The notes under the pieces were generated by a model. It had not been told where the DNA came from. It saw nothing but the letters and a program-made list of their open reading frames with translations, and made no database searches. The translations under genes and the position numbers were made by a program. Of a stretch of DNA of 64,000 nt, positions 36,193-49,044 are shown in pieces. The stretch is from Bacillota bacterium (GTDB lineage: Bacteria > Vulcanimicrobiota > JAJTBE01), in the NCBI GenBank assembly GCA_021287065.1, contig JAJTBE010000196.1, positions 2,539 to 66,538 on the forward strand, written 5' to 3'. Numbering within the stretch: position 1 is the first letter of the stretch; the number at the start of each line of letters is the position of its first letter.

Positions 36193-36516
36193 TTAGTTCT
36201 GTTTTCCTGATTTTGCCTTTTCTTCTGCTACCGCTTTTTCCAGATCTTTTATCTCGTTTTCCAGTTTTTCGATGGTCGGTATATTATCGCCGATATCTTT
36301 GATATTTTTCTCGATCTTTTTGACTTCGCCCATTACAAGATCGTATTTGTCCTTAATGATTTTGTTCTCCTGTTGTCTAAGTTGAAGTTCAGCTTCAAGG
36401 GTGATTATCTGTTTCTGAAGCTCTGCGGCTTTTGAAGCGTTGTTTGCTTCCTCACATCCGGAGGAGGCAAAAATCAGAAACAAAGCTGCAAAAAGCACAC
36501 AAATGAATCTTTTCAT
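36193..36516 (-). CDS. Coiled-coil lipoprotein (paralogue 1)
   Basis: Signal peptide plus a lipobox-like ASSGC. Heptad-rich (ELQKQIITLEAELQLRQQENK). Confidence 0.5.
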   Translation of the reverse strand: MKRFICVLFAALFLIFASSGCEEANNASKAAELQKQIITLEAELQLRQQENKIIKDKYDLVMGEVKKIEKNIKDIGDNIPTIEKLENEIKDLEKAVAEEKAKSGKQN

Positions 36517-36534: not shown

Positions 36535-36885
36535 TTATTTCGATTCCGGGGGATTTTTGCCTTCACCGGCGGGTGATTTGGCATTTTGTTCCCTCAGTGT
36601 TTTCAGTTCCTGTTCCAGTCTGTTTTTCTTCTCAAGGAGAAATGGCAGATCTTTCACTTTATTTTTTTCATTATCAAGCTGATCTTTCATTTTCTGAAGA
36701 AGTTTGGGAGTGCTGAGCATTTCATTCTTCATCCGCTCACTGTCATTCTGAAGTTTTGATACTTCTGATTTCAGAGTTTCGACACGTTTTTCCATTGTTC
36801 TGATTTTTGAATTGGAAAGGGAATCGCATCCTGTAAAAGCAAAAGCTGCGATTAAAATCAGAAACAGAACCCTGATTTTATTCAT
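36535..36885 (-). CDS. Coiled-coil lipoprotein (paralogue 2)
   Basis: Signal peptide plus AFTGC lipobox. Same architecture as its neighbour. Confidence 0.5.
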   Translation of the reverse strand: MNKIRVLFLILIAAFAFTGCDSLSNSKIRTMEKRVETLKSEVSKLQNDSERMKNEMLSTPKLLQKMKDQLDNEKNKVKDLPFLLEKKNRLEQELKTLREQNAKSPAGEGKNPPESK

Positions 36886-37830: not shown

Positions 37831-38685
37831 TTATTTAATGAAATAATCTGAAATCTTGAGGTAATTCCAGCTTGTTCTGAGGGGATCGAGCCAATAGATG
37901 ATTCCTATGCCCATGTTTCTTCCTGAAAGGTTTGAGCTGAAGAAGATTTCGGGGCTTACTGATATTTTGCCTCTTCCCGGGGGCACTGCTATGGTTGCTG
38001 CAGACCAGCATCTGCCTGTTCCCAGATCTGCCACATCCATAAAGAGAAAATCGATGTAACCGATTTTGCGTGATTTCAGAGAATATTCCATGTCGATTTC
38101 AAACTTTGAAACCTGGTTGGATTTTATCTCAGATCTCTTTTTGGGAGTAACATTGAGATATGTAATCTTATCATTTTCCGCAGCTCTTTTATCGGGGTAA
38201 ATTTTGAATGATCCTGCAATGATGTTTTTGCTGCTTGAAAATGCCAGTTCCTGTCCCTTACTGTTAACAAGGCTTACAACCGCATAAACTTCCTTTATTT
38301 TCTCATCAAGGCCCACTTCAACGGGGTCGGAAACATGAAGGAATACATTGGAGCCTTTTTTTACATTGTAGGTTTTTCTCAGTTTGTTGATTTCGCCGAG
38401 GCTCAGCGATTTCACCTTTTCCCCGCTGTTTGTGCGGTAAAAGTGTACCACTAACTTAGCATCGGGAAGTGATTTAAGGGCGTATTTGATTTCCATTACA
38501 TAGGGAATTTTTACCGGTTTTGGCAGATAGGCAAGACTTCTCGGAGTTATCTTTGTTATCTCCACTGAGTCTATATGGTTTTTGGTAACTGAGCGAACCA
38601 GTTCGGTATCCTTGCAATATCCTGAGGATATCATGGCTGCTGCCATTAAAACCGATAATACTAAAAGACAGAAAAACTTTTTCAT
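37831..38685 (-). CDS. Hypothetical lipoprotein/secreted protein
   Basis: Start set at MKKFFCLLVLSVLMAAAMISSGYC (signal peptide plus Cys). The track extends to 38757. Confidence 0.5.
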   Translation of the reverse strand: MKKFFCLLVLSVLMAAAMISSGYCKDTELVRSVTKNHIDSVEITKITPRSLAYLPKPVKIPYVMEIKYALKSLPDAKLVVHFYRTNSGEKVKSLSLGEINKLRKTYNVKKGSNVFLHVSDPVEVGLDEKIKEVYAVVSLVNSKGQELAFSSSKNIIAGSFKIYPDKRAAENDKITYLNVTPKKRSEIKSNQVSKFEIDMEYSLKSRKIGYIDFLFMDVADLGTGRCWSAATIAVPPGRGKISVSPEIFFSSNLSGRNMGIGIIYWLDPLRTSWNYLKISDYFIK

Positions 38686-38770
38686 TGTGTTCTCCATTGG
38701 TGTCATACTGATTAGACGTTTTACAATATTACTAAGTTTTCCGAATAATTCCTTCAATTTAAGGCGTTAG

Positions 38771-39910
38771 TTAAAACAAAACCCTCACATTGTAAGACAT
38801 TACATCTGCTCCTGCATTCATTGAAGCATCGATCTGAGTTTCATTTAGGGGCGGAAGGGCAGGGAGCTTAACTTCCTTTCTTCCGGCAACCTTTCCGGAG
38901 GCGTCAATTGCTTCAACAGCCACAATCAGAGGTTCAGCTTTGACAGTTCCGTCGTTTCTGAAAGTAAGGCGGATATTGAGCAAGCCTTTTTCGTCTTTCT
39001 GAACTCCATCTTCACGGTAACTGATGATAATTTTCCCATCAGGGGAAATTCCCGCTTTCTGCCAGTCAGAACGCTGATTTCCTCCTGAAATGAGGGTTGC
39101 GGATGAAAGAATAACTTTTTCGGGAAGTTCACCGGATATTTTATTCTTTTTTCTGAATTCAATGAAAGCCTGTTTGTAACTGAGAATTTTCCCGGAAAGG
39201 ACCTGTTTCATACCTGTAAGCATATTCCAGGCTTCCCAGAGATTAATTTCCTCAGGTCTTACATCATAGGGCGCCGCTATGCTTCCAGCCTGTGTAACAA
39301 CAGTCTGTCTTTTTGGGGCAAGGCCCACATTTTCTTTTGAATCCTTTGATGGGTAAAAAGCTGCATCTCCGTTCCAGCAGATAACTTCAACGGAACCGCT
39401 GCCGGTAACTCTCAGTTCAGCTTCGGCGCTTCCGTTTAATGTAAGATACCCCTTTGGTGTTGTTACCTTAACGGTATCTTTATTATCTTCCCTTGTAATC
39501 CAGAGATTGCCTGAAAGAAGTTCGATCTCAACGGAGATTATATCAGTCTTTTTCTCCGCAACAACATCTTTGAATTTAAACCTTGCACCGTTCCCTGCTC
39601 TTACGGAAATGGAACTGCCTGCAATAAAGATATTTCTTTCACAATCAACAGGAATCATGATGGTTCTTCCTGTCTGAACCTGATCCCCTTTGCTTATCAT
39701 ACCGGCTGTTTCCACAACCCTGACAGGTTTTTCCGCGTAGTAAAGAACAGGGCTTAAAACCGTATAGCTGCTCCTGTAGATATGATTGAGAATAAACCAG
39801 CCTGTGGTAACAATAACCACAACAATAATGATAAGAACAGGCAGACTTGATTTGCTTTTGCGTTTGACCTTGATGTTGCCATAGATTGTTTTCGGACCTT
39901 TATTAAACAA
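38771..39910 (-). CDS. Signal-anchored FecR-like domain protein
   Basis: N-terminal TM (LPVLIIIVVVIVTTGWFIL). Beta-rich periplasmic region. FecR-like is a weak call. Confidence 0.45.
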   Translation of the reverse strand: MFNKGPKTIYGNIKVKRKSKSSLPVLIIIVVVIVTTGWFILNHIYRSSYTVLSPVLYYAEKPVRVVETAGMISKGDQVQTGRTIMIPVDCERNIFIAGSSISVRAGNGARFKFKDVVAEKKTDIISVEIELLSGNLWITREDNKDTVKVTTPKGYLTLNGSAEAELRVTGSGSVEVICWNGDAAFYPSKDSKENVGLAPKRQTVVTQAGSIAAPYDVRPEEINLWEAWNMLTGMKQVLSGKILSYKQAFIEFRKKNKISGELPEKVILSSATLISGGNQRSDWQKAGISPDGKIIISYREDGVQKDEKGLLNIRLTFRNDGTVKAEPLIVAVEAIDASGKVAGRKEVKLPALPPLNETQIDASMNAGADVMSYNVRVLF

Positions 39911-39995: not shown

Positions 39996-41363
39996 TTAAT
40001 CTTTGCCCATTCTCTCTTTTGCAGAAGAACCAAGAACATTGACAATATCCCTGGGATGGGAATACTGGGGTGAATAAGCCAGATCGAGTGATTCGAGATC
40101 TTCTGCGGTCATGCCCGCTGTAATGGCGGTGGCAAGAACATCAATCCGCTTGTCGGCACCTTCCTCGCCTACAACCTGTGCGCCGAGGAGTTTGCCTGTC
40201 TGTTTTCTGAAGATTCCCTTGAGGTGAATGGGTTTTGAACCCGGATAATAACCGGCATGGGAAGAGGAATTTATCATTATTGTAAAATAATCGAGACCTT
40301 CTTCCAGAATTTCCTTTTCGGTTATTCCCGTTCTTGCGGCAGCAAGTCCGTCGAATGCAACGATAGATGTGCGGAGAACTCCGGCAAATCTCATAAAACC
40401 ACCGGCTGCATTACATCCCGCAACCTTACCCTGCTGGTTGGCAGGTCCAGCAAGGGGCGACCATGACGGAGAACCGGTAACGATATTCATTGATTCAACC
40501 GCATCACCGGCAGCATAGATATCAGGGTCTGAAGTGCACATATAATCATCGGTGGAAATTCCGAATTTTCCTATGTTAAGACCTGCATCAACAGCAAGTT
40601 TTATATTTGGCCTTACACCGAGGCTCATTATGATAAGATCCGCATCTGCCCATCTTCCGTCGGCAGAACAGACCCTGCGGGGTGTTCCTCCGCCGCCGGC
40701 GTCAATCCTTTCAACAGGAGAACCCTTAAATATATGCACGCCTTTTTCTTTCATACGATTTTCGATAAACTGGGCGATTTCGGGATCAAAAGGAGGCAGA
40801 ATCTGTGGAGCCATTTCAAAAACCGATGTATTAAGGCCTCTTTTGCAAAGGACATCGGCTGCTTCTATTCCGATATATCCTCCGCCTATTACCACCGCAG
40901 AAACGGGAGAATTGTTGCGGATATAGTCTTCTATGGAATCCACATCGGGTATGGTTCTCAGTGAAAATATTCCCGGACCGTCTATTCCCGGAAGCTTTGG
41001 TATAATTGTGGATGCTCCTGTTGCAATAATGAGCTTATCATACTCATACTGCCAGGTTGTGCCGTCGGTAAGATTTTTTACATCAAGTTTTCTTGAATGC
41101 CTCTGAATTGCAGTTACTTCAGTATTTACAAAAACTTCAATTCCGTATTTTTCTTTAAGATCAGCGGGGCGTCGGACAATAAGCCTGCCTCTGTCCCTGA
41201 CTTCGCCGCTTATATAATAGGGAAGCCCGCAGCCTGCAAAGGAAATATACGGACCTTTTTCAAATATTGTAATTTCAGCATCGGGATTTGTGCGAGCTGC
41301 TTTTCCTGCTGCGGATGCTCCTGCAGCTACTCCTCCTATAATTGCAATTCTTATTTTTTTCAT
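39996..41363 (-). CDS. CoA-disulfide reductase / NADH oxidase family pyridine nucleotide-disulfide oxidoreductase
   Basis: FAD motif IAIIGGVAAGASAAG. Active-site SFAGCGLPYY single-Cys motif of the CoADR/Nox/Npx family. Second Rossmann motif VIGGGYIGIE. Confidence 0.8.
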   Translation of the reverse strand: MKKIRIAIIGGVAAGASAAGKAARTNPDAEITIFEKGPYISFAGCGLPYYISGEVRDRGRLIVRRPADLKEKYGIEVFVNTEVTAIQRHSRKLDVKNLTDGTTWQYEYDKLIIATGASTIIPKLPGIDGPGIFSLRTIPDVDSIEDYIRNNSPVSAVVIGGGYIGIEAADVLCKRGLNTSVFEMAPQILPPFDPEIAQFIENRMKEKGVHIFKGSPVERIDAGGGGTPRRVCSADGRWADADLIIMSLGVRPNIKLAVDAGLNIGKFGISTDDYMCTSDPDIYAAGDAVESMNIVTGSPSWSPLAGPANQQGKVAGCNAAGGFMRFAGVLRTSIVAFDGLAAARTGITEKEILEEGLDYFTIMINSSSHAGYYPGSKPIHLKGIFRKQTGKLLGAQVVGEEGADKRIDVLATAITAGMTAEDLESLDLAYSPQYSHPRDIVNVLGSSAKERMGKD

Positions 41364-41387
41364 AATTGATTCCGCCTTATCCAGAGT

Positions 41388-42623
41388 TTAATCGGGAGTT
41401 CTGAATTCTATAAAGTTTCTGACATAAAGTGAATAGATAAAAGACAGTGCTCCATCACCAAATTTTTTCTGTATTACTCCCAAACTTGTTTTTCCATCAA
41501 GGGATTTGAGAATTTTTTCAGCTCTTTTATGAACCGGAATAACCTGAGTTCCATGAATCAAAGCCCATCCGAAGTCTTCAGCTCTTGCAGCATAACGGGG
41601 CACCGGGCAGAGGTTTTCTTCAAGGGTTACTTCCAGAACCGGCGGATTATCGGGTTTTGTAACAGGTCCGCAAATCAGGGGATCCATTGGTTTTTCATCC
41701 AGATCAGCCACAACTTTGCAACCGCCGGGGCAATTTGAAATTTTGAGGCATTTTTTGCATTCCTTCGGAATTCGCTGCCGCCATTTTCTCATAACAGGGG
41801 ACTGCCACACAGCTTTTACTTCCTGTTTGAACAGATTTCCGGCTATTACCGATGAATGATCACAGGGGCGCATATTTCCGCAGGGATCGATGGTTGAGTA
41901 GGTGATTCCCGCAAAACAGCCTGAGGATGATGAAGGGAAGTGGCAGTGAGGTATGCAGTTGCCCACAAGAACATTGTAACCGAGAGCTTTAAGCTCTTCC
42001 ACTTTTTCACAGGCTTTTTTAAGCTCTTCAGGGGTGATGCTCAGATCATCCCTGTGTTTTCCGATATATCTTGAGAAAATGGAATACTGGGCGCCGAGAT
42101 CAACGGCAAGCTCTGCTATTTCCTCGATGTGATCGATGTTTTTCTTAGTCAGAACCGTATTGGTGTTTACATTATATCCTGCAGCGTAGGTAAGTCTGAG
42201 GTTGTCCAGAACTTTATCGAAATCTGCGGGGTTTTTGGAACCGGTAAATGCATTATGGGCTTCTGCCGTATTTCCATGAAGGGAAAAGAGGATAGTGTTT
42301 ACATGTCCGCATTTCATCAGTCCTTCGAGGATGCGGTCGGTGTTATCCCAAACTCCGTTTGTGAAAATATGATAGAATTTTCCTGTTTTTTCAAGAACAG
42401 CAAGAATGTCAAAGAAGTTGGGGTTTTCCGTAGGTTCGCCGCCTGTAACCCTGTATTCCTGAACATATTTGTCGAGTTTATTGATTACCCGCTCCCAGCC
42501 TGTAACGCTCAGGGGTTCTCCCTTTGCGCCCTCAAAAGTCCGGGGACAGTTCGGGCAGTTTCCGTATGAACATTTATCCGATATTTCCAGTGATGCAATT
42601 ACCGGTCCACCTAATTCAAGCAT
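41388..42623 (-). CDS. Radical SAM / SPASM-domain enzyme with a C-terminal PqqD-like (RRE-like) domain
   Basis: N-terminal Cys cluster CSYGNCPNCP (CX4CX2CX2C, non-canonical spacing). GGEPTENP SAM-binding motif. C-terminal Cys-rich SPASM region (CIPHCHF...GC...DPCGNMRPC...CKKCLKISNCPGGC). The last ~60 aa (AEKILKSLDGKTSLGVIQKKFGDG) resemble a PqqD/RRE peptide-binding domain. Confidence 0.7.
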   Translation of the reverse strand: MLELGGPVIASLEISDKCSYGNCPNCPRTFEGAKGEPLSVTGWERVINKLDKYVQEYRVTGGEPTENPNFFDILAVLEKTGKFYHIFTNGVWDNTDRILEGLMKCGHVNTILFSLHGNTAEAHNAFTGSKNPADFDKVLDNLRLTYAAGYNVNTNTVLTKKNIDHIEEIAELAVDLGAQYSIFSRYIGKHRDDLSITPEELKKACEKVEELKALGYNVLVGNCIPHCHFPSSSSGCFAGITYSTIDPCGNMRPCDHSSVIAGNLFKQEVKAVWQSPVMRKWRQRIPKECKKCLKISNCPGGCKVVADLDEKPMDPLICGPVTKPDNPPVLEVTLEENLCPVPRYAARAEDFGWALIHGTQVIPVHKRAEKILKSLDGKTSLGVIQKKFGDGALSFIYSLYVRNFIEFRTPD

Positions 42624-42633
42624 TGTTTCTCCT

Positions 42634-43386
42634 TCAGACTCTCTTTTTTCCGGTTTTTTTCATATAATCCCAAAGATCTTTGAGATGTTTGAGATAATTG
42701 AGTATGGCGCCTTTACCCAGCTTACTTTTGCCTTTTTCCCTGTCTCTGAAAATATAGGCAAATTCTTTCCATTTGTTGTGTTTGCCTTTAATGATAACCT
42801 CAAGGACTATTTTCCAGCCGATTGGGTTCAGATCTACACCGTCGATAACATTTTTTCTGAAAAGGCAGAATCCTGATGTAATGTCTTTTACCCTTGTGAG
42901 GGGAGTTCCCATCATTACCGCAGTTTTCGAAATAAATCTTCTTATAAAGGGCCAGTCTTTGGTTCCGCCTCCGGGAATATATCGGCTTCCGATAGCCAGA
43001 TCGCACTCTCCGGATTGTATGGATCTTACCATAGCGGGCAGAATCGCCGCATCATGGCTTCCATCGGCATCCATAACTCCGAGGATTTCGCCGTTGGCTG
43101 CAGCCCAGCCGTCTATAACCGCTGATGAAAGTCCACGCTTCCCTACCCTGCGGATAACCATCAGGTTGTATTTTGATTTTAAACTTTCGCAGAATTCCCA
43201 GGTTTTGTCCGGCGAATCGTCGTCAACGATTACCACTTCACCGTTTATTCCAGCTTCTCCGAGGTGTTTGGAGATTACAGCTATCTGATCTTCTATGCCT
43301 TCCCGTTCGTTGTATGAGGGAATAATTATTGATACTTCAACTCTGCCTTTTCCGGCAGTTTTTTCTTTATCACCGTCAGCACTCAT
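42634..43386 (-). CDS. Family 2 glycosyltransferase (DPM1/GtrB-like)
   Basis: VSIIIPSYNEREGIE, VVIVDDDSPDKT and DADGSHD motifs. Confidence 0.8.
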   Translation of the reverse strand: MSADGDKEKTAGKGRVEVSIIIPSYNEREGIEDQIAVISKHLGEAGINGEVVIVDDDSPDKTWEFCESLKSKYNLMVIRRVGKRGLSSAVIDGWAAANGEILGVMDADGSHDAAILPAMVRSIQSGECDLAIGSRYIPGGGTKDWPFIRRFISKTAVMMGTPLTRVKDITSGFCLFRKNVIDGVDLNPIGWKIVLEVIIKGKHNKWKEFAYIFRDREKGKSKLGKGAILNYLKHLKDLWDYMKKTGKKRV

Positions 43387-43404
43387 CCGATTTTTATCCT
43401 CCGG

Positions 43405-43869
43405 TTAAAGGGAAATTACTTTCCACGCATTCATTATAGTTTCACAGATTTCATCCATACTTGCTACAAATCCGACATGAATATCATTGGCAGAGCCGAA
43501 TTCGTCAGCAGATGAAATACATACCATTATCTTGGATCCCAACTCTTCAAGAACAATGAGTTTATCAAGGGATTCGGTTTTTCCGTAAGCCATCTTCACA
43601 GCAGAATTGAGCAGTATGATGGCTCTCGGTTTGACAGGCCCGTTTATCATAGCCTGCAGAAAGAGATACATCAGCTTTTTTCCAAGAATCTCATTGCCTG
43701 AACCTATAGTATCGGAGCCAAAAACAACAACAATATTTTTCACCTGGGAAGGTTCCGACAGTTTCTGGGGACGAACTTCCTCGAATTCGGAATAATCTCC
43801 CCGGATCATCCGAAGATAATAATTCAGGTCTGTTTCCTGAAATGTTGGGGGCAACCTGTTCTCGGTCAT
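43405..43869 (-). CDS. DsrE/TusD-like sulfur-relay-fold protein with a 45-aa N-terminal extension
   Basis: KNIVVVFGSD ... AIILLNSAV ... KIMVCISSADEFG mirrors the TusD/DsrE beta-alpha pattern with the conserved Cys. Confidence 0.5.
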   Translation of the reverse strand: MTENRLPPTFQETDLNYYLRMIRGDYSEFEEVRPQKLSEPSQVKNIVVVFGSDTIGSGNEILGKKLMYLFLQAMINGPVKPRAIILLNSAVKMAYGKTESLDKLIVLEELGSKIMVCISSADEFGSANDIHVGFVASMDEICETIMNAWKVISL

Positions 43870-44372
43870 TTCGCTTCCTCCCGGTTACTCCGGATTTTGC
43901 TTCGATTCGATGCAATTTCTGCCGCCCACTCCACCGCTTCTTCCGGACTGTCAAAATACCTGATAGGAGCGGATTGTCCGTTTTCATCGGTTATACGGAA
44001 TGTCCCTATACCGGCAACAGGCTTCCCCCATTTCAGGGCGTATGCTATTTCCGACAAAGTTCCGTAAGAACCGCTGATGGCAATCAGCACATCACTGCAT
44101 TTTACAACTATACTGTTACGGGCTTCTCCGAAGCCTGTGGGGATGGAGTAACTGAGATAAGGGTTTGCCCCGGTACGGTCGTCCCCAGGCAGTATGCCTA
44201 TAACCGTGCCTCCCGCATCTCTTGCGCCTCTGGAGGCATGTTCCATTACTCCTTCAAGTCCGCCGCAGTATAATACAGCTCCGGTGCGGGCAACAGCAAA
44301 CCCGGCGCGGTAGGCTATGCCGCCCGTGCTGCTATTGCATTGGCCTGCACCAATAATGCCAATATTAATCAT
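43866..44372 (-). CDS. LOG / TIGR00725-family Rossmann protein
   Basis: INIGIIGAG ... VLYCGGLEGVMEHASRGARDAGGTVIGILP ... ISGSYGTLSE (PGGxGTxxE-like). Confidence 0.7.
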   Translation of the reverse strand: MINIGIIGAGQCNSSTGGIAYRAGFAVARTGAVLYCGGLEGVMEHASRGARDAGGTVIGILPGDDRTGANPYLSYSIPTGFGEARNSIVVKCSDVLIAISGSYGTLSEIAYALKWGKPVAGIGTFRITDENGQSAPIRYFDSPEEAVEWAAEIASNRSKIRSNREEAK

Positions 44373-44595
44373 ATTTTTTTATTCGCCGGTATGTATATCT
44401 ATCCTTCAACAGCAGCAAATCATCATTATTCCCTACAGAATGAATTTTAAAGGATATTCACACAGTTTCACTAATTATTCTGAAGTTGGGAATATATTGT
44501 TCTCTTATTAAATTGTGTGGTTTTATGGTTATCAGGGATGATTTCAGAACAATATATAGAATAAACGATATAGCCAAAAAAATCCGGAGGCTCCT

Positions 44596-47500
44596 GTGAT
44601 AGATGAATCTCAAAAACCATCACTGCTACATATAGATGACAGTAAGGATTTTCTTGATATCTTCTCAATGACTTTCAGGAAGCAGTTTTCGCTTACTTCT
44701 GTTCTGTCAGGAAGCGAAGCTCTGGAAAAACTCAGAAACAATTCTTATGATCTGATTATTTCCGATTACGAAATGCCAATGATGGACGGACTTACCCTTC
44801 TTAAAAGCGTACGGCAGTTGTACCCTGATATTCCTATTGTTTTTCTCACAGGTCAGGGAAACGAGAGAGTGGCAAGAGAAGCTTTTATTAACGGAGCATC
44901 GGACTATTTCACAAAAGATCTCTATGGCTTTGCTTCAAAAGAGAAGCTTTCAAACAGTATAAACACCCTTCTGGAAAAGAGAAAAGCGGAGATCGCCCTC
45001 CAGAGAACCCACGAACGGCTGGGTTATATCATAAAACACGATCCAAACGCCATTGCTGTTTTTGACAATTTTATGAACTATGTTTTTGTCAGCGACAGAT
45101 TTATCAAAGATTACAGGCTTTCATCAGGAGATATTATCGGAAAAAACCATTATGAAATCTTTCCGGAAATACCTGAGGAGTGGAAGGAAATTCATAGAAA
45201 AGTCCTCTCCGGTATGATAATCAGTGCAGATGAAGATATTCTGGTAAGACAGGATGGAACACAGGACTTTATAAAATGGGAATGCCGGCCCTGGTGGGAA
45301 ACACCGGACAAAATCGGCGGCATGATCATGTACACGGAAGTTATTACTGACAGAAAGAAGACTGAAATCAAACTGCGGCAGTCGGAAGAACTATACCGTA
45401 AACTGGTTAATACTTCACCCGACAGTATATGCATCACCGATTTGCAGGGAAATCTTTTATTTGGTTCACTCCGGGCTTATGAAATGCTGGGATATTCCAT
45501 TGAAGACAATGTAATGGGAACAAGCCCAATTATGATGGTGATTCCCGAAGACAGAGAAGCAGCTTATATAAATATGATGAAGATTATGTCCGGAGAAGTA
45601 ATCGGTTCAAATGAATACCGGATGTACAAGAAAGACGGATCATTAATTTACACTGAAATCAACACAACTCCTTTATTCGATGACGACGGAAAAATCAATT
45701 CACTCCTTTCCGTTATCCGTGATGTTACGGAAAGAAAGAAGATTGAAAACAAGATTGTTCACCTCAATAAGGTTCTCAAAGCTATAAGGCATGTCAATCA
45801 GATTATCGTAAAGGAAAAAGAGCCGGACAAACTGATACAGGAAGTCTGTAAAACTCTTATTGAAACCAGGGGCTATGATTTTGCCTGGATATTCACTCTG
45901 GACAGCAAAGGGAATCCGGAGAGGTCGTATGAAGCTGGACTCAGTGAGGAATTCCACAATATAATCAATAATTGTGAAAAAGGCGATATTCTGTCGTGTC
46001 TCAGAAAGATCACGGATGTTTCCGATCCGGTATTAAGCACCCAGTTCAGCGAAACATGCCCGACTTGCCCGGTAAGGGCGATTTACAGGTCAAATCCCGG
46101 AATTCTGGCTAAAATAGAGCACGAAGACAAGCTTTACGGGTATATTTCCGTATCGATCCCCGACATCATCAACATAGATGAAGAGGAAACGGAACTGTTC
46201 AGAGAAGTAGCGGGAGATGTGGGATATGCAATCCACAATATAAAAACCGCAGAAGAAAAGAAAAATACAAGAATTGAACTGAGAAAAGAGCGGGATATGT
46301 TCCGGAAGTATATGGATATTTCCGGCGTGATGATGCTGGCTTTGGATCAAAAAGGCAATATCACACTTATCAACTCAAGAGGCTGCGAAATTCTCGGGTA
46401 CAGACACGAAGAACTTATGGGTAAAAACTGGTTTGACATCTGTATTCCCGATGAAATCAGAGAATCTCTGAGAAATACATATCTCAAAACAATTAAAAGA
46501 GAAAGCAGCAATCCCAATTATTTCGAAGACCATGGTTTTCACAGCAACAGTATTATAACCCGGCAGGGAATCATCAGGGAGATTTCCTGGCATAACTCCA
46601 TGCTGAAGAACGAAAACGGGGAAATCGGAGGGGTTGTCTGTTCAGGCCTTGATATTACAGATATTAATTCCCTGAAAGAAGACTCCGCAAAAGACAGGCT
46701 TCTTATCGACAGTCTGCTTGAAATTAGCCCTGCGAGTATTGTGGTTCTCAACAGGGAAGGTTTGATTACATATGCAAATATTCAGGCTGAGGAACTGCTG
46801 AAAGTAAGGAAGGACTCTATTGTTTCCCTTTATTACAATGCACCGGAGTTTAAAATTACCGACTTTGATAAAAATCCTTATCCGAATGAAAAACTGCCTT
46901 TCAATATTGTTAAAAACACTCAGAAACCGGTATTTAATGTTGAACACTGCATAATCGGAGATGACGAAAGTGTAAAATACCTCTCTATAAACGCAGCCCC
47001 GCTTTTCGACGGTTCCGGCAACTGGGACGGAGTGCTTGCCGTTATTCAGGATATATCAAACCAGATTCTTGTCAAAAAAGACATAGAAAATCTGATGGAG
47101 TTTTACCGCACAATAATCGAGACAACTGGTACAGCCATAATGGTCTTTGGCGACGATTGTATAATCACTCATTCAAACCGGGAAATGGAAAAACTCTCGG
47201 GATTTCCCCTTGATGAAGTCATCAACAAAAAACGCTGGTCTGATTTCGTAACCGGTCCTGATCTTGTAAAGATGCAGGAATACCACAAACTCAGAGGAGA
47301 TCATTCCGATGAAGCTCCGAGGAAATACGATTTTGTGTTTATTGACAGACACGGAACCGCCAAACATGTAATGATAAACATTACCCTTATTCCCAACACA
47401 AGAATGAGAGTAGCTTCGCTTATCAACATTACGGAACAGAAGAGAAGCGAGGCAATGTACAAAGCTATGTTTGACAACACAGCTATGGCTATGGTCCTCT

Positions 47501-49044
47501 TTGAGGAAGACACGACCATTACTCTCGTCAACAGGGAATTTGAGAAGATGACAGGTTACATGAAGGAAGAAATAGAAGGGATAATGAGCTGGACAGATCT
47601 TATAGCTGAAGAGGATCTGGACAGAATGTTCAAATATTATCAGATAAGGATTATCACTCAGGATATTCTTCCAAAGAGCTATTCCACAAAAATTGTGAGA
47701 AAAAGCGGAGAGATAAAGCATGTTGATGTTTCCGTCGCCGTAATTCTTCATACAAACCAGAGAATTGCATCAATTATGGATGTTACAAAAATCAAAAAGA
47801 CGGAAAACAACTTTATCCTGTCTCAGAAAAAGCTGGCTCTCAGCAACAAGATCGCCAATGCGTTCCTTACATTCAGCGATGATCGGACATTTAACGAAGC
47901 ACTGAAGATCATCATAGAAGTAATGAGGAGTGAAACCGGTCTATTCGGATACATTGATGAAAACAGTATGATTGTTTGTCCCTCAGTATGCGGAAAAATA
48001 CCGGAAAAACTGAAGAATGCCATAAACAACGAAACAGTGGATTCACTGGGTGAAAACTCCATCTGGCGTGGTGCGATCAGCGATCAGAAAACCATAATAA
48101 TCAACAGAAAGACTGAACTGCCCGAAGACAGACTTATTCAGGAGGAAACACTTGTTATAAACAGGGCTATCGTTTCGCCAATTATTTACGGAAAACGGAC
48201 CATAGGCCTGCTTGCCATGATCAACAAGGAAACTGATTACAACTATGAAGACGAGGAAACAATCGAATCAATTTGTAATCAGATTGCACCCATACTTTAT
48301 TCCCGGTTTGAAAATATGGCAAAGGAAAAGGAAAAGGAAGAAGCCAGAGAGCAGCTTTTAAAAATAAACAAAGAGCTTAATGATTTTGCACATGTGGTAA
48401 GCCATGATCTGAAATCACCCCTGAATCTTATGAAAGCTCAGATTCAGGCAGCCGGTGAAGATCAGGAATTATTCGGACAGTTGTACCCCAAAATGGTGAA
48501 ACAGGCGGATTACCTGTTATCGTTTATCGATAATCTGCTTAAACTCTCAAGAGCCGGAAGAATAGTGGAACAGAAGATCAATATCAGTTTAAGGCAGCTA
48601 ATCCAGAGCTCCTTCGAATTTCTTGCATCAAACTGCAGGACCTGCGAGCTTAACAACCAGATGCCGCCGCTGAAACTTTATGCGGATTATCAGGGAATGG
48701 ATCAGATTTTCTCCAATCTTATTCAGAATTCCATTAAATTCAAGGATCCAGGTAAGGAAAAGCTTATCATAACAGTCAGCGCCACTGAGAAGAATTCGGA
48801 TTTGGTCATAGTATTTGAAGACAATGGAATCGGTATTGAAGAAACTGTCATCGGCAAGATATTCAATTCCGGTTTTACCACTTCAAAGGAGATGGGAACC
48901 GGATTCGGTCTTGCTATTGTAAGGAAAGTAATCGAAGCCCACAACGGAAAGATAGAAGCATACAGCGAAGGAAAAGGTAAAGGAAGCCGGTTTGTGATTA
49001 CCATACCTGTAGTGGAAGAGGAAAAAACCAGTGATGTAACATAA
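44596..49044 (+). CDS. Hybrid sensor histidine kinase: N-terminal REC, multiple PAS/PAC modules, a GAF-like region, HisKA and HATPase
   Basis: GTG start after GGAGG. REC: DLIISDYEMPMMDGLTLL. Repeated PAS-like blocks. H-box FAHVVSHDLKSPLN. G-boxes DNGIGIE and GTGFGLAIV. Confidence 0.85.
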   Translation: MIDESQKPSLLHIDDSKDFLDIFSMTFRKQFSLTSVLSGSEALEKLRNNSYDLIISDYEMPMMDGLTLLKSVRQLYPDIPIVFLTGQGNERVAREAFINGASDYFTKDLYGFASKEKLSNSINTLLEKRKAEIALQRTHERLGYIIKHDPNAIAVFDNFMNYVFVSDRFIKDYRLSSGDIIGKNHYEIFPEIPEEWKEIHRKVLSGMIISADEDILVRQDGTQDFIKWECRPWWETPDKIGGMIMYTEVITDRKKTEIKLRQSEELYRKLVNTSPDSICITDLQGNLLFGSLRAYEMLGYSIEDNVMGTSPIMMVIPEDREAAYINMMKIMSGEVIGSNEYRMYKKDGSLIYTEINTTPLFDDDGKINSLLSVIRDVTERKKIENKIVHLNKVLKAIRHVNQIIVKEKEPDKLIQEVCKTLIETRGYDFAWIFTLDSKGNPERSYEAGLSEEFHNIINNCEKGDILSCLRKITDVSDPVLSTQFSETCPTCPVRAIYRSNPGILAKIEHEDKLYGYISVSIPDIINIDEEETELFREVAGDVGYAIHNIKTAEEKKNTRIELRKERDMFRKYMDISGVMMLALDQKGNITLINSRGCEILGYRHEELMGKNWFDICIPDEIRESLRNTYLKTIKRESSNPNYFEDHGFHSNSIITRQGIIREISWHNSMLKNENGEIGGVVCSGLDITDINSLKEDSAKDRLLIDSLLEISPASIVVLNREGLITYANIQAEELLKVRKDSIVSLYYNAPEFKITDFDKNPYPNEKLPFNIVKNTQKPVFNVEHCIIGDDESVKYLSINAAPLFDGSGNWDGVLAVIQDISNQILVKKDIENLMEFYRTIIETTGTAIMVFGDDCIITHSNREMEKLSGFPLDEVINKKRWSDFVTGPDLVKMQEYHKLRGDHSDEAPRKYDFVFIDRHGTAKHVMINITLIPNTRMRVASLINITEQKRSEAMYKAMFDNTAMAMVLFEEDTTITLVNREFEKMTGYMKEEIEGIMSWTDLIAEEDLDRMFKYYQIRIITQDILPKSYSTKIVRKSGEIKHVDVSVAVILHTNQRIASIMDVTKIKKTENNFILSQKKLALSNKIANAFLTFSDDRTFNEALKIIIEVMRSETGLFGYIDENSMIVCPSVCGKIPEKLKNAINNETVDSLGENSIWRGAISDQKTIIINRKTELPEDRLIQEETLVINRAIVSPIIYGKRTIGLLAMINKETDYNYEDEETIESICNQIAPILYSRFENMAKEKEKEEAREQLLKINKELNDFAHVVSHDLKSPLNLMKAQIQAAGEDQELFGQLYPKMVKQADYLLSFIDNLLKLSRAGRIVEQKINISLRQLIQSSFEFLASNCRTCELNNQMPPLKLYADYQGMDQIFSNLIQNSIKFKDPGKEKLIITVSATEKNSDLVIVFEDNGIGIEETVIGKIFNSGFTTSKEMGTGFGLAIVRKVIEAHNGKIEAYSEGKGKGSRFVITIPVVEEEKTSDVT

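Follow-up and report, generated by a model that had tools for sequence, protein, structure and literature searches.

A radical SAM-SPASM enzyme with a predicted C-terminal RRE-fold domain in a five-gene operon that may be a lineage-specific composite

Do five tightly packed genes that include a radical S-adenosylmethionine (SAM) enzyme encode one pathway, and if not, what does the enzyme act on? The question is raised by positions 39996-44372 of a 64,000-nucleotide stretch, hereafter the window, of contig JAJTBE010000196.1 (assembly GCA_021287065.1, a Bacillota bacterium placed in Vulcanimicrobiota by GTDB). There the original prediction had seen a single operon coupling a radical SAM (rSAM) enzyme, with a SPASM region and a C-terminal domain of the type called RRE (the recognition element of peptides that are made by ribosomes and modified after translation, RiPPs), to a family 2 glycosyltransferase (GT2) and to genes resembling DsrE, LOG and coenzyme A disulfide reductase (CoADR). 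With somewhat better than even confidence, we favour a lineage-specific composite unit over one pathway: a trio of genes, an orphan rSAM gene and a CoADR gene that otherwise stands alone, with the substrate of the rSAM enzyme encoded in trans. This reading is built on what we established of the domain content, predicted fold and cluster ligands of the enzyme, of the partners of its family and of the modularity of the operon. Read 5' to 3', the five genes are:

43866-44372, minus strand: SLOG gene, 168 amino acids, first of the trio
43405-43869, minus strand: DsrE-like gene, 154 amino acids, second of the trio
42634-43386, minus strand: GT2 gene, 250 amino acids, third of the trio
41388-42623, minus strand: rSAM-SPASM gene with a C-terminal RRE-fold domain, 411 amino acids
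39996-41363, minus strand: CoADR-like gene, 455 amino acids

The open reading frame (ORF) coordinates bear out the tight minus-strand packing that had been described, with a 4-bp overlap between the SLOG and DsrE-like genes and subsequent gaps of 18, 10 and 24 bp. Conservation of the order is another matter. Among 37 related loci, corresponding to 20 non-redundant groups at 90% rSAM identity, the five-gene order was found again only in L006 and L007, whose rSAM is 92% identical to that of the window. Both are collinear with the window on either side, from the kinase gene through the gene for a 308-amino-acid protein, and as collinear near relatives they are therefore not independent evidence for five-gene linkage. 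In all other relatives examined the gene neighbourhoods show the modules unlinked, which speaks against a single coupled cluster; the order being limited to L006 and L007 and the modules lying apart elsewhere, we regard the arrangement as a lineage-specific juxtaposition of three modules.

Each module could be followed on its own. The trio occurs by itself, with neither an rSAM nor a CoADR gene and at 59-74% identity to the window, at L032:6436-8604, L033:6476-8517 and L034:6529-8315, and the trio-bearing genomes are Vulcanimicrobiota/Eremiobacterota-like metagenome-assembled genomes (MAGs). SLOG orthologues with 59-75% identity lead the same trio in L006, L032, L033 and L034, and SLOG/TIGR00725, DsrE-like and GT2 form a conserved three-gene module that is independent of the rSAM gene. 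The window GT2 is 64-74% identical to the trio GT2s of L032-L034 and only 27% to the one downstream of the rSAM gene in L009; it is therefore the orthologue of the trio GT2 and not of the rSAM-linked GT2 in L009 and L037. At L001, L008 and L011 (rSAM ~75% identical), a GGDEF gene follows the rSAM gene and the other four window genes are absent. The CoADR orthologues of L035 and L036 stand alone, adjoining a CHASE2-cyclase gene. All three modules can be seen on one 7.6-Mb contig, ctg97552l, where the trio (L032) lies at ~4.36 Mb, the rSAM gene (L001, 75% identity to the window) at ~7.37 Mb and the CoADR gene (L035, 64%) at ~0.12 Mb. Mobile elements (IS66 transposase, group II intron reverse transcriptase, DDE_3 and IS110 transposases) are found at L001:226-6519 and L035:2119-10131, and their presence around these loci is consistent with frequent rearrangement of the modules. 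A scan of species-representative genomes returned three loci only, of which L011, from a Vulcanimicrobiota MAG, was the one new locus.

These comparisons bear directly on the view that all five genes make up one new pathway, a mycofactocin-like cofactor or RiPP cluster in which the rSAM enzyme modifies a peptide or small molecule, the GT2 glycosylates it, the DsrE-like and CoADR proteins supply sulfur or deal with it, and a nucleotide-linked intermediate is the substrate of the SLOG protein. The shared strand and close junctions speak for it, as do the order kept in L006 and L007 despite divergence of the SLOG protein to 75% and of the CoADR protein to 79% identity (values for L006), and the GT2 genes near the rSAM gene in L009, L014 and L037 as well. 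We nonetheless consider this view improbable: no other relative examined has the modules linked, and on one contig they are megabases apart, the window GT2 is orthologous to the wrong partner, the mycofactocin models are far from reached (MftC TIGR03962, 74.5 vs 265; MftF TIGR03965, 41.7 vs 280) and there is no precursor gene in the window. Overall, the comparative data lean against dependence of the rSAM product on the other four genes.

The proteins around the rSAM enzyme were assigned with differing precision. The 168-amino-acid protein matches SLOG cluster 4 (PF18306, 145 bits) and TIGR00725 (132 vs a cut-off of 106.9) but falls below the LOG models (TIGR00730, 36 vs 96; NF058542, 21.7 vs 300). 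It is therefore a member of the LOG superfamily, with its Rossmann fold, and not the LOG hydrolase that had been named. The 154-amino-acid protein scores 86.7 bits against a cut-off of 110 on TIGR03527 (YedF) and matches profile positions 58-194 only; it therefore lacks the N-terminal TusA-like domain. Pfam DsrE gave just 16.6 bits vs 22.7, and several of its 57 homologues are annotated as DsrE family. Of its earlier description as a DsrE-like, sulfur-carrier-fold protein, the resemblance to the C-terminal half of YedF holds, but the protein stays below both cut-offs. The presence of a GT2 was confirmed (PF00535, 100 bits); the 250-amino-acid protein is soluble, of the Dpm1/PpgS type, and reaches no NCBIfam equivalog cut-off.

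For the 455-amino-acid protein, the label of a CoADR-like disulfide reductase is upheld by an end-to-end alignment with the CoADR models and by a single-cysteine motif, SFAGC45GLPYY, but not by the equivalog cut-offs (TIGR03385, 430 vs 578.8; NF007123, 383 vs 458). SFxxCxLPY we take to be the redox-cysteine motif of S. aureus CoADR, and the protein is probably a CoADR/Nox-type single-cysteine flavoprotein disulfide reductase. Relatives ~50% identical to it bear a C-terminal rhodanese domain, which it lacks. The CHASE2-adenylate/guanylate cyclase genes that adjoin the CoADR orthologues lie at L035:3323-5704 and L036:3259-5736; at L033:3006-6363 such a gene, together with one for a FecR protein, lies by the trio. 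Close relatives of several window genes are labelled Eremiobacteraeota or Vulcanimicrobiota.

The 411-amino-acid protein is the rSAM-SPASM enzyme. Radical_SAM (PF04055) scored 60.8 bits vs a gathering threshold of 29.5, SPASM PF13186 scored 37.7 vs 21.5, and TIGR04085 scored 39 vs a cut-off of 27. Its parts are encoded as follows:

42546-42572, minus strand: codons of the CX4CX2C cluster motif (C18, C23, C26), from the alignment and a per-locus motif table
41718-41957, minus strand: SPASM auxiliary-cluster cysteines C223, C227, C236, C254, C289, C292, C298 and C302
41400-41609, minus strand: RRE/PqqD-type winged-helix domain, residues ~339-408, the most conserved part of the family

The cluster motif reads C18-SYGN-C23-PN-C26, that is CX4CX2C and not the canonical CX3CX2C, as had been noticed. 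Its one-residue insertion is kept in the window, L001, L006, L008, L009, L011 and P0009/P0010, and in an alignment of 32 family sequences CX4CX2C is confined to the subclade at least ~60% identical to the window protein; the wider family has mostly CX3CX2C, and others have no cysteine triad. Within the subclade neither the GGE SAM-binding motif (G61, G62, E63) nor any SPASM cysteine varies, and each of the eight SPASM-region cysteines is conserved in 28-32 of the 32 sequences. With C236-X12-G-X4-C254 and C289-X2-C292-X5-C298-X3-C302, the protein keeps the pattern that denotes two auxiliary clusters (CX9-15GX4C ... CX2CX5CX3C), which, together with both SPASM models, agrees with the proposed twin-cluster SPASM region. 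By these motifs the enzyme looks intact.

An AlphaFold2 model built from the 32-sequence alignment had a predicted local distance difference test (pLDDT) score of 93.4, and its nearest Foldseek neighbours were SuiB (E = 5e-18), then SkfB, PqqE, BlsE, anSME, CteB and TigE. These predicted-fold matches favour the earlier assignment to peptide- or protein-modifying rSAM-SPASM maturases, and the window enzyme looks like an RRE-dependent rSAM-SPASM maturase of RiPPs or proteins. No NCBIfam equivalog was reached, PqqE (TIGR02109, 76 vs 381), AhbD (75 vs 500) and HxsC (TIGR03977, 53 vs 268) being missed like MftC, and the enzyme falls outside HxsB, YhhB and all other curated families too. It therefore belongs to no known cofactor system; membership in one would have overturned the prediction.

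The C-terminal domain is less readily recognised from its sequence. Pfam at E <= 10 returned nothing relevant for the last 98 amino acids of the window protein and for 11 homologues, and PqqD PF05402 was unmatched; of the two domains expected from profile searches of the 411-amino-acid protein, SPASM was thus recovered (37.7 and 39 bits), but PqqD was not. A profile search of the PDB ranked PqqD (3g2b) first, though with E = 0.19. In the model, residues ~339-408 fold as four short strands and then three helices, which includes the succession of three beta strands and three helices of a winged helix-turn-helix, and the comparison values were 8.4 for the PbtF RRE, 7.5 for TfuB1, 7.4 for TigE, 7.3 for ThcOx, 6.9 for TbiB1 and 6.7 for PqqD. 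An RRE fold in the atypical C-terminal position, as foreseen, is therefore supported by the predicted structure, despite the blank sequence models. The consensus of the domain is ..EDFGWxLIxGxQVIPV...DGxTTLGxIExxFGxGALSFIYSLYVRxFIEF. Its profile retrieves 177 cluster representatives among 1.84 billion proteins; in most matches the domain ends proteins of roughly 340-480 amino acids, and about two fifths of the matches listed are short ORFs (<200 amino acids), probably fragments. The full-length rSAM homologues number ~97, all derived from MAGs or metagenomes. The family is rare and undescribed.

What does this family usually work with? We compared all ORFs of the loci against each other and then scanned for motifs; 16 groups had upstream sequence and were informative. 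In 11 of these 16, the rSAM gene is immediately preceded by one or two genes for proteins of ~190-440 amino acids with C-terminal arrays of His-Xaa-Asn (HxN; HTN, HSN, HAN, HGN and others) at up to nine motifs per 40 residues. Such genes were located at:

L002:7063-7758, HxN
L009:6123-7797, HxN
L014:7451-8882, HxN
L016:6609-9012, HxN
L020:6483-7460, HxN
L024:3-1116, HxN
L027:7316-8032, HxN
L028:3265-3822, HxN
L030:6503-7994, HxN

Most of the arrays end in PGD[FWYMT][IVL][FY]; those of L016 and L017 have turned into long tandem repeats of PLVAHSN. When seven HxN proteins were aligned, the conserved features were, in order, an N-terminal MxYRVxL, [YF]ELxFF, a hydrophobic stretch with AQAA after it, and the repeats. 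This shared N-terminal segment lends circumstantial support to leader binding by the RRE-type domain. The HxN proteins have no match in Pfam or NCBIfam, and no earlier description of HxN repeats together with rSAM enzymes turned up in literature searches. By analogy with known maturation systems, HxN proteins would be the usual substrates of the rSAM family.

Several other features of these clusters were recorded. First, prepilin-type N_methyl genes occur in several groups, one family of them in seven, and blocks with several N_methyl genes lie beside the HxN and rSAM genes at L009:2872-6070, L014:3651-7333, L020:2837-6066 and L004:11043-14190. Second, four HxN clusters contain a second rSAM gene (~340 amino acids), at L009:1229-2251 and L014:2323-3354 (both minus strand), L002:14082-15176 and L027:167-1114; the L009 copy, the only one scanned, scored 150 bits on HxsC4 NF038332 and 88 bits on HxsC, both below cut-off. 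Third, at L009:7893-13204 and L037:3201-8461, overlapping genes encode the rSAM enzyme, a polytopic membrane protein of ~510 amino acids (weak PMT_2), a 251-amino-acid GT2 and a PMT_2-type glycosyltransferase of the GT-C class, a four-gene unit that points to rSAM-linked glycosylation that takes place outside the cytoplasm and depends on polyprenol-phosphate sugars.

The five informative groups without an HxN gene are exactly the window subclade: window/L006, L001, L008, L011 and L037. The variant motif and the HxN association are nevertheless compatible, since L009, whose rSAM is 61% identical to the window's, carries CX4CX2C within a complete HxN cluster. Most likely, in our view, the window enzyme works in trans and the gene for its HxN-type protein substrate lies in another part of the genome; such a partner is invisible from the window because the window encodes none. 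Substrate assignment would be the weakest link of this reading, the substrate being either encoded elsewhere or of a different kind. No precursor-like ORF was detected in the window, as the original prediction had also noted. Searches of the window with HxN, pseudopilin, GT-C and GGDEF-partner proteins (tBLASTn) gave no homologue and a generic GT2 match only, and no credible ORF lies in the 1.27 kb of intergenic sequence that precedes the rSAM gene of L008. The one small ORF nearby, 44471-44668 on the minus strand, was rejected as a precursor: it is conserved in L006 only where the opposite-strand kinase gene lies and not as a protein, and its earlier dismissal as spurious was justified.

An alternative that would account for the missing HxN genes is a switch of partners, by which the subclade now works with signalling or redox proteins and modifies one of them or a new non-HxN substrate. 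HxN genes are absent from all five subclade groups, and the stop of the rSAM gene overlaps or abuts the start of the GGDEF gene (~650-675 amino acids) in three independent groups (L001:9248-11203, L008:5944-7926, L011:2137-4161), which suggests translational coupling. We think such a switch quite unlikely. The window has no homologue of the GGDEF partner, the partners vary (GGDEF, CoADR, GT-C) and hence no common new partner emerges, and the CX4CX2C form of L009 still lies alongside HxN genes.

If the trans reading is right, the course of the reaction can be sketched. The RRE winged helix would bind the N-terminal leader of an HxN protein; the [4Fe-4S] cluster held by CX4CX2C would reductively cleave SAM; and the resulting 5'-deoxyadenosyl radical would take a hydrogen within the HxN motif, with the SPASM clusters handling the electron. 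As in triceptides, the product might be a His-to-Asn C-beta crosslink; otherwise it might be a covalent change of the HXS (His-Xaa-Ser) type.

How far the family depends on radical chemistry is, however, called into question by members without the cysteine triad. Seven groups are of this kind (L014, L016/L017/L019, L020/L021, L022, L024, L025 and L028/L029), as are P0012, P0013, P0025, P0033, P0088, P0091 and P0093. In those read in the alignment the GGE motif is degraded too; all retain the SPASM region and the RRE-type domain, and HxN genes precede them wherever upstream sequence exists. Representative genes are:

L014:9107-10330, triad-less rSAM-family gene
L019:9125-10312, triad-less rSAM-family gene
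L020:7504-8730, triad-less rSAM-family gene
L024:1148-2395, triad-less rSAM-family gene
L025:144-1328, triad-less rSAM-family gene
L028:3856-5121, triad-less rSAM-family gene

Perhaps what the family conserves is the binding or escorting of a substrate, and radical chemistry, where needed, would come from the family protein itself or from an HxsC-like partner. This raises the alternative that the window protein is a relic, in which the CX4 insertion impairs the cluster and leaves only an RRE/SPASM binder or scaffold. The triad-less proteins argue for it: all seven groups and the seven P proteins still have SPASM cysteines together with the C-terminal domain, where conservation in the family is highest, and two of them, P0012 and P0013, belong to the nearer relatives of the window subclade (52-55% identity). 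We judge it unlikely all the same. CX4CX2C is strictly kept across 60-92% identity, including L009 in its full HxN cluster, and is accompanied by the invariant G61, G62, E63 and SPASM cysteines; other radical SAM enzymes tolerate non-canonical cluster spacings.

Our preferred reading, a composite unit with a trans-acting rSAM enzyme, has to be held against observations that weigh the other way. Between the window and L006, the DsrE-like, GT2 and rSAM proteins are conserved best (92-93%), and neighbours less so (62-79%). A scan for promoters and terminators did no better than on shuffled sequence and revealed no convincing terminator between the genes. This and the tight spacing make co-transcription of the five genes plausible, and co-transcription could reflect a functional link. 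A GT2, not orthologous to that of the window, also lies downstream of the rSAM gene in L009, L014 and L037. HxN ORFs are missing from the 64-kb window and from L001, L008, L011 and L037, and a low-stringency scan (at least three motifs per 25 amino acids) of the window, these four loci and L006 was empty as well; the trans substrate is therefore purely something that we infer. Finally, with seven triad-less groups beside HxN genes, the conserved role of the family is perhaps not radical chemistry.

A broader proposal, which we regard as possible but doubtful, is that the family and its HxN partners form a novel system in which His-rich repeat proteins are matured by rSAM enzymes and exported, a counterpart of the HXS antiphage system among uncultured bacteria, Vulcanimicrobiota-like and Chloroflexota MAGs included, with the window enzyme acting in trans and its operon neighbours cooperating. 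Pseudopilin genes, the HxsC-like rSAM, and GT2 and PMT_2-type (GT-C) genes would then accompany the HxN partners, and the trio and CoADR genes would be co-transcribed with the rSAM gene because their products help, e.g., to glycosylate the matured protein or with its sulfur/redox handling.

The surroundings of the operon were also characterized. Downstream lie two further genes:

38771-39910, minus strand: membrane-anchored protein, weakly FecR-like, 379 amino acids, 85 bp downstream of the CoADR-like gene
37831-38757, minus strand: protein with no family assignment, 308 amino acids, 13 bp beyond the preceding gene

The FecR match of the former is weak (E = 0.006), and its syntenic L006 orthologue is ~62% identical; a FecR protein is also encoded in L033, as noted above. 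The 308-amino-acid protein has no match in Pfam or NCBIfam, and its N-terminal hydrophobic segment is a probable signal peptide. Members of its family lie near the rSAM gene in five groups (window/L006, L009/L015, L016/L019, L020 and L028), some of which encode HxN. Divergent from the operon and syntenic in L006 is a gene for a 1482-amino-acid response-regulator/multi-PAS/GAF histidine kinase (44596-49044), which could act as a regulator. Rfam at gathering thresholds found no RNA element in the whole window, and so no riboswitch ahead of the operon. Two adjacent small genes at 36193-36516 and 36535-36885 encode coiled-coil, lipoprotein-like paralogues (30% identity, E = 6e-7).

Tight operon packing at this locus is thus not the mark of a single pathway. 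The window has no informative partner genes, and the operon neighbours look incidental. What the locus does point to is a branch of the RiPP-type radical SAM maturases that is both rare and uncharacterised, in which the RRE is fused after the SPASM region, CX4CX2C marks one subclade, the triad is frequently lost elsewhere and whole HxN-repeat proteins would be the substrates. L009, L002 and L024 provide candidate enzyme-substrate pairs.

Several known systems resemble the locus or its family in part. The CoADR-like protein resembles CoADR and CoADR-RHD in its end-to-end alignment and SFxxCxLPYY motif, but falls below their cut-offs and has no rhodanese domain. Mycofactocin shares the combination of an rSAM-SPASM enzyme, a GT2 and a PqqD-like RRE. 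It differs in its MftC and MftF, whose model cut-offs lie far above the scores of the window proteins, and in its separate MftB, whereas the RRE here is fused; no mftA, mftD or mftE gene is present in the window and the rSAM-GT2 adjacency is not conserved, so that the five-gene set is, as had been suggested, unlike mycofactocin. SuiB/StrB, CteB and TigE have the same rSAM barrel, SPASM region and RRE winged helix, but their RRE is N-terminal, whereas that of the window enzyme follows SPASM, and identity is 17-20%. A C-terminal RRE is not unprecedented, since proteusin epimerases of the PoyD/OspD type are radical SAM RiPP enzymes that have one (PMC8326336); they differ in having the radical SAM cluster alone, without SPASM.

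Triceptide synthases appear to be the closest chemical analogue. HaaB, YhhB and HtkB are rSAM-SPASM enzymes of a class that acts on repeated aromatic-X-X motifs, among them motifs that begin with His (HAA, HNR, HTK), and they crosslink His-C2 to the C-beta of residue 3 (PMC11499958). HxN suits the motif grammar of this class, for which one would look for aromatic-X-X motifs in a neighbouring precursor and for crosslinking at -2 Da for each motif; a precursor-like HxN protein lies beside the rSAM gene in the 11 groups of relatives named above and not in the window. The differences are that no curated model was reached, YhhB NF041707 being absent from the best 25 matches of the window rSAM (weakest, 34 bits) and scoring 39.8 vs 445 with the second rSAM of L009, and that the HxN partners are proteins of 190-440 amino acids with a hydrophobic segment rather than short peptides.

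HXS is the closest system-level analogue of the usual context of the family. The HxS-repeat effector of this antiphage system is HxsA; HxsB and HxsC mature it, with a gain of 8 Da on SHRSS, and it is N-terminally processed and exported to the periplasm; 99.7% of HXS systems are in Pseudomonadota (PMC13128918). In the HxN relatives, too, a gene for a His-Xaa-small-polar repeat protein adjoins an rSAM/SPASM gene and a smaller second rSAM gene, and the HxN proteins, like HxsA, have an N-terminal region before an export-like hydrophobic segment. They differ in that the repeats are HxN and not HxS, the proteins match no HxsA model and have no peptidoglycan-binding domain, no HxsD gene was seen, the RRE is fused C-terminally in the rSAM enzyme, and the hosts are Vulcanimicrobiota/Eremiobacterota-like, Chloroflexota and other MAGs. 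The window itself is further removed, with an HxsC score of 53 vs 268 and no repeat-protein gene, and PADLOC found in it only a generic rSAM similarity at the level of viperin and no defence-system assignment. By analogy, the window enzyme is best read as an orphan within a protein maturation family of the HXS-like or triceptide-like kind, and the features of this family bridge the His-containing crosslinks of triceptides and the phage-defence effector of HXS.

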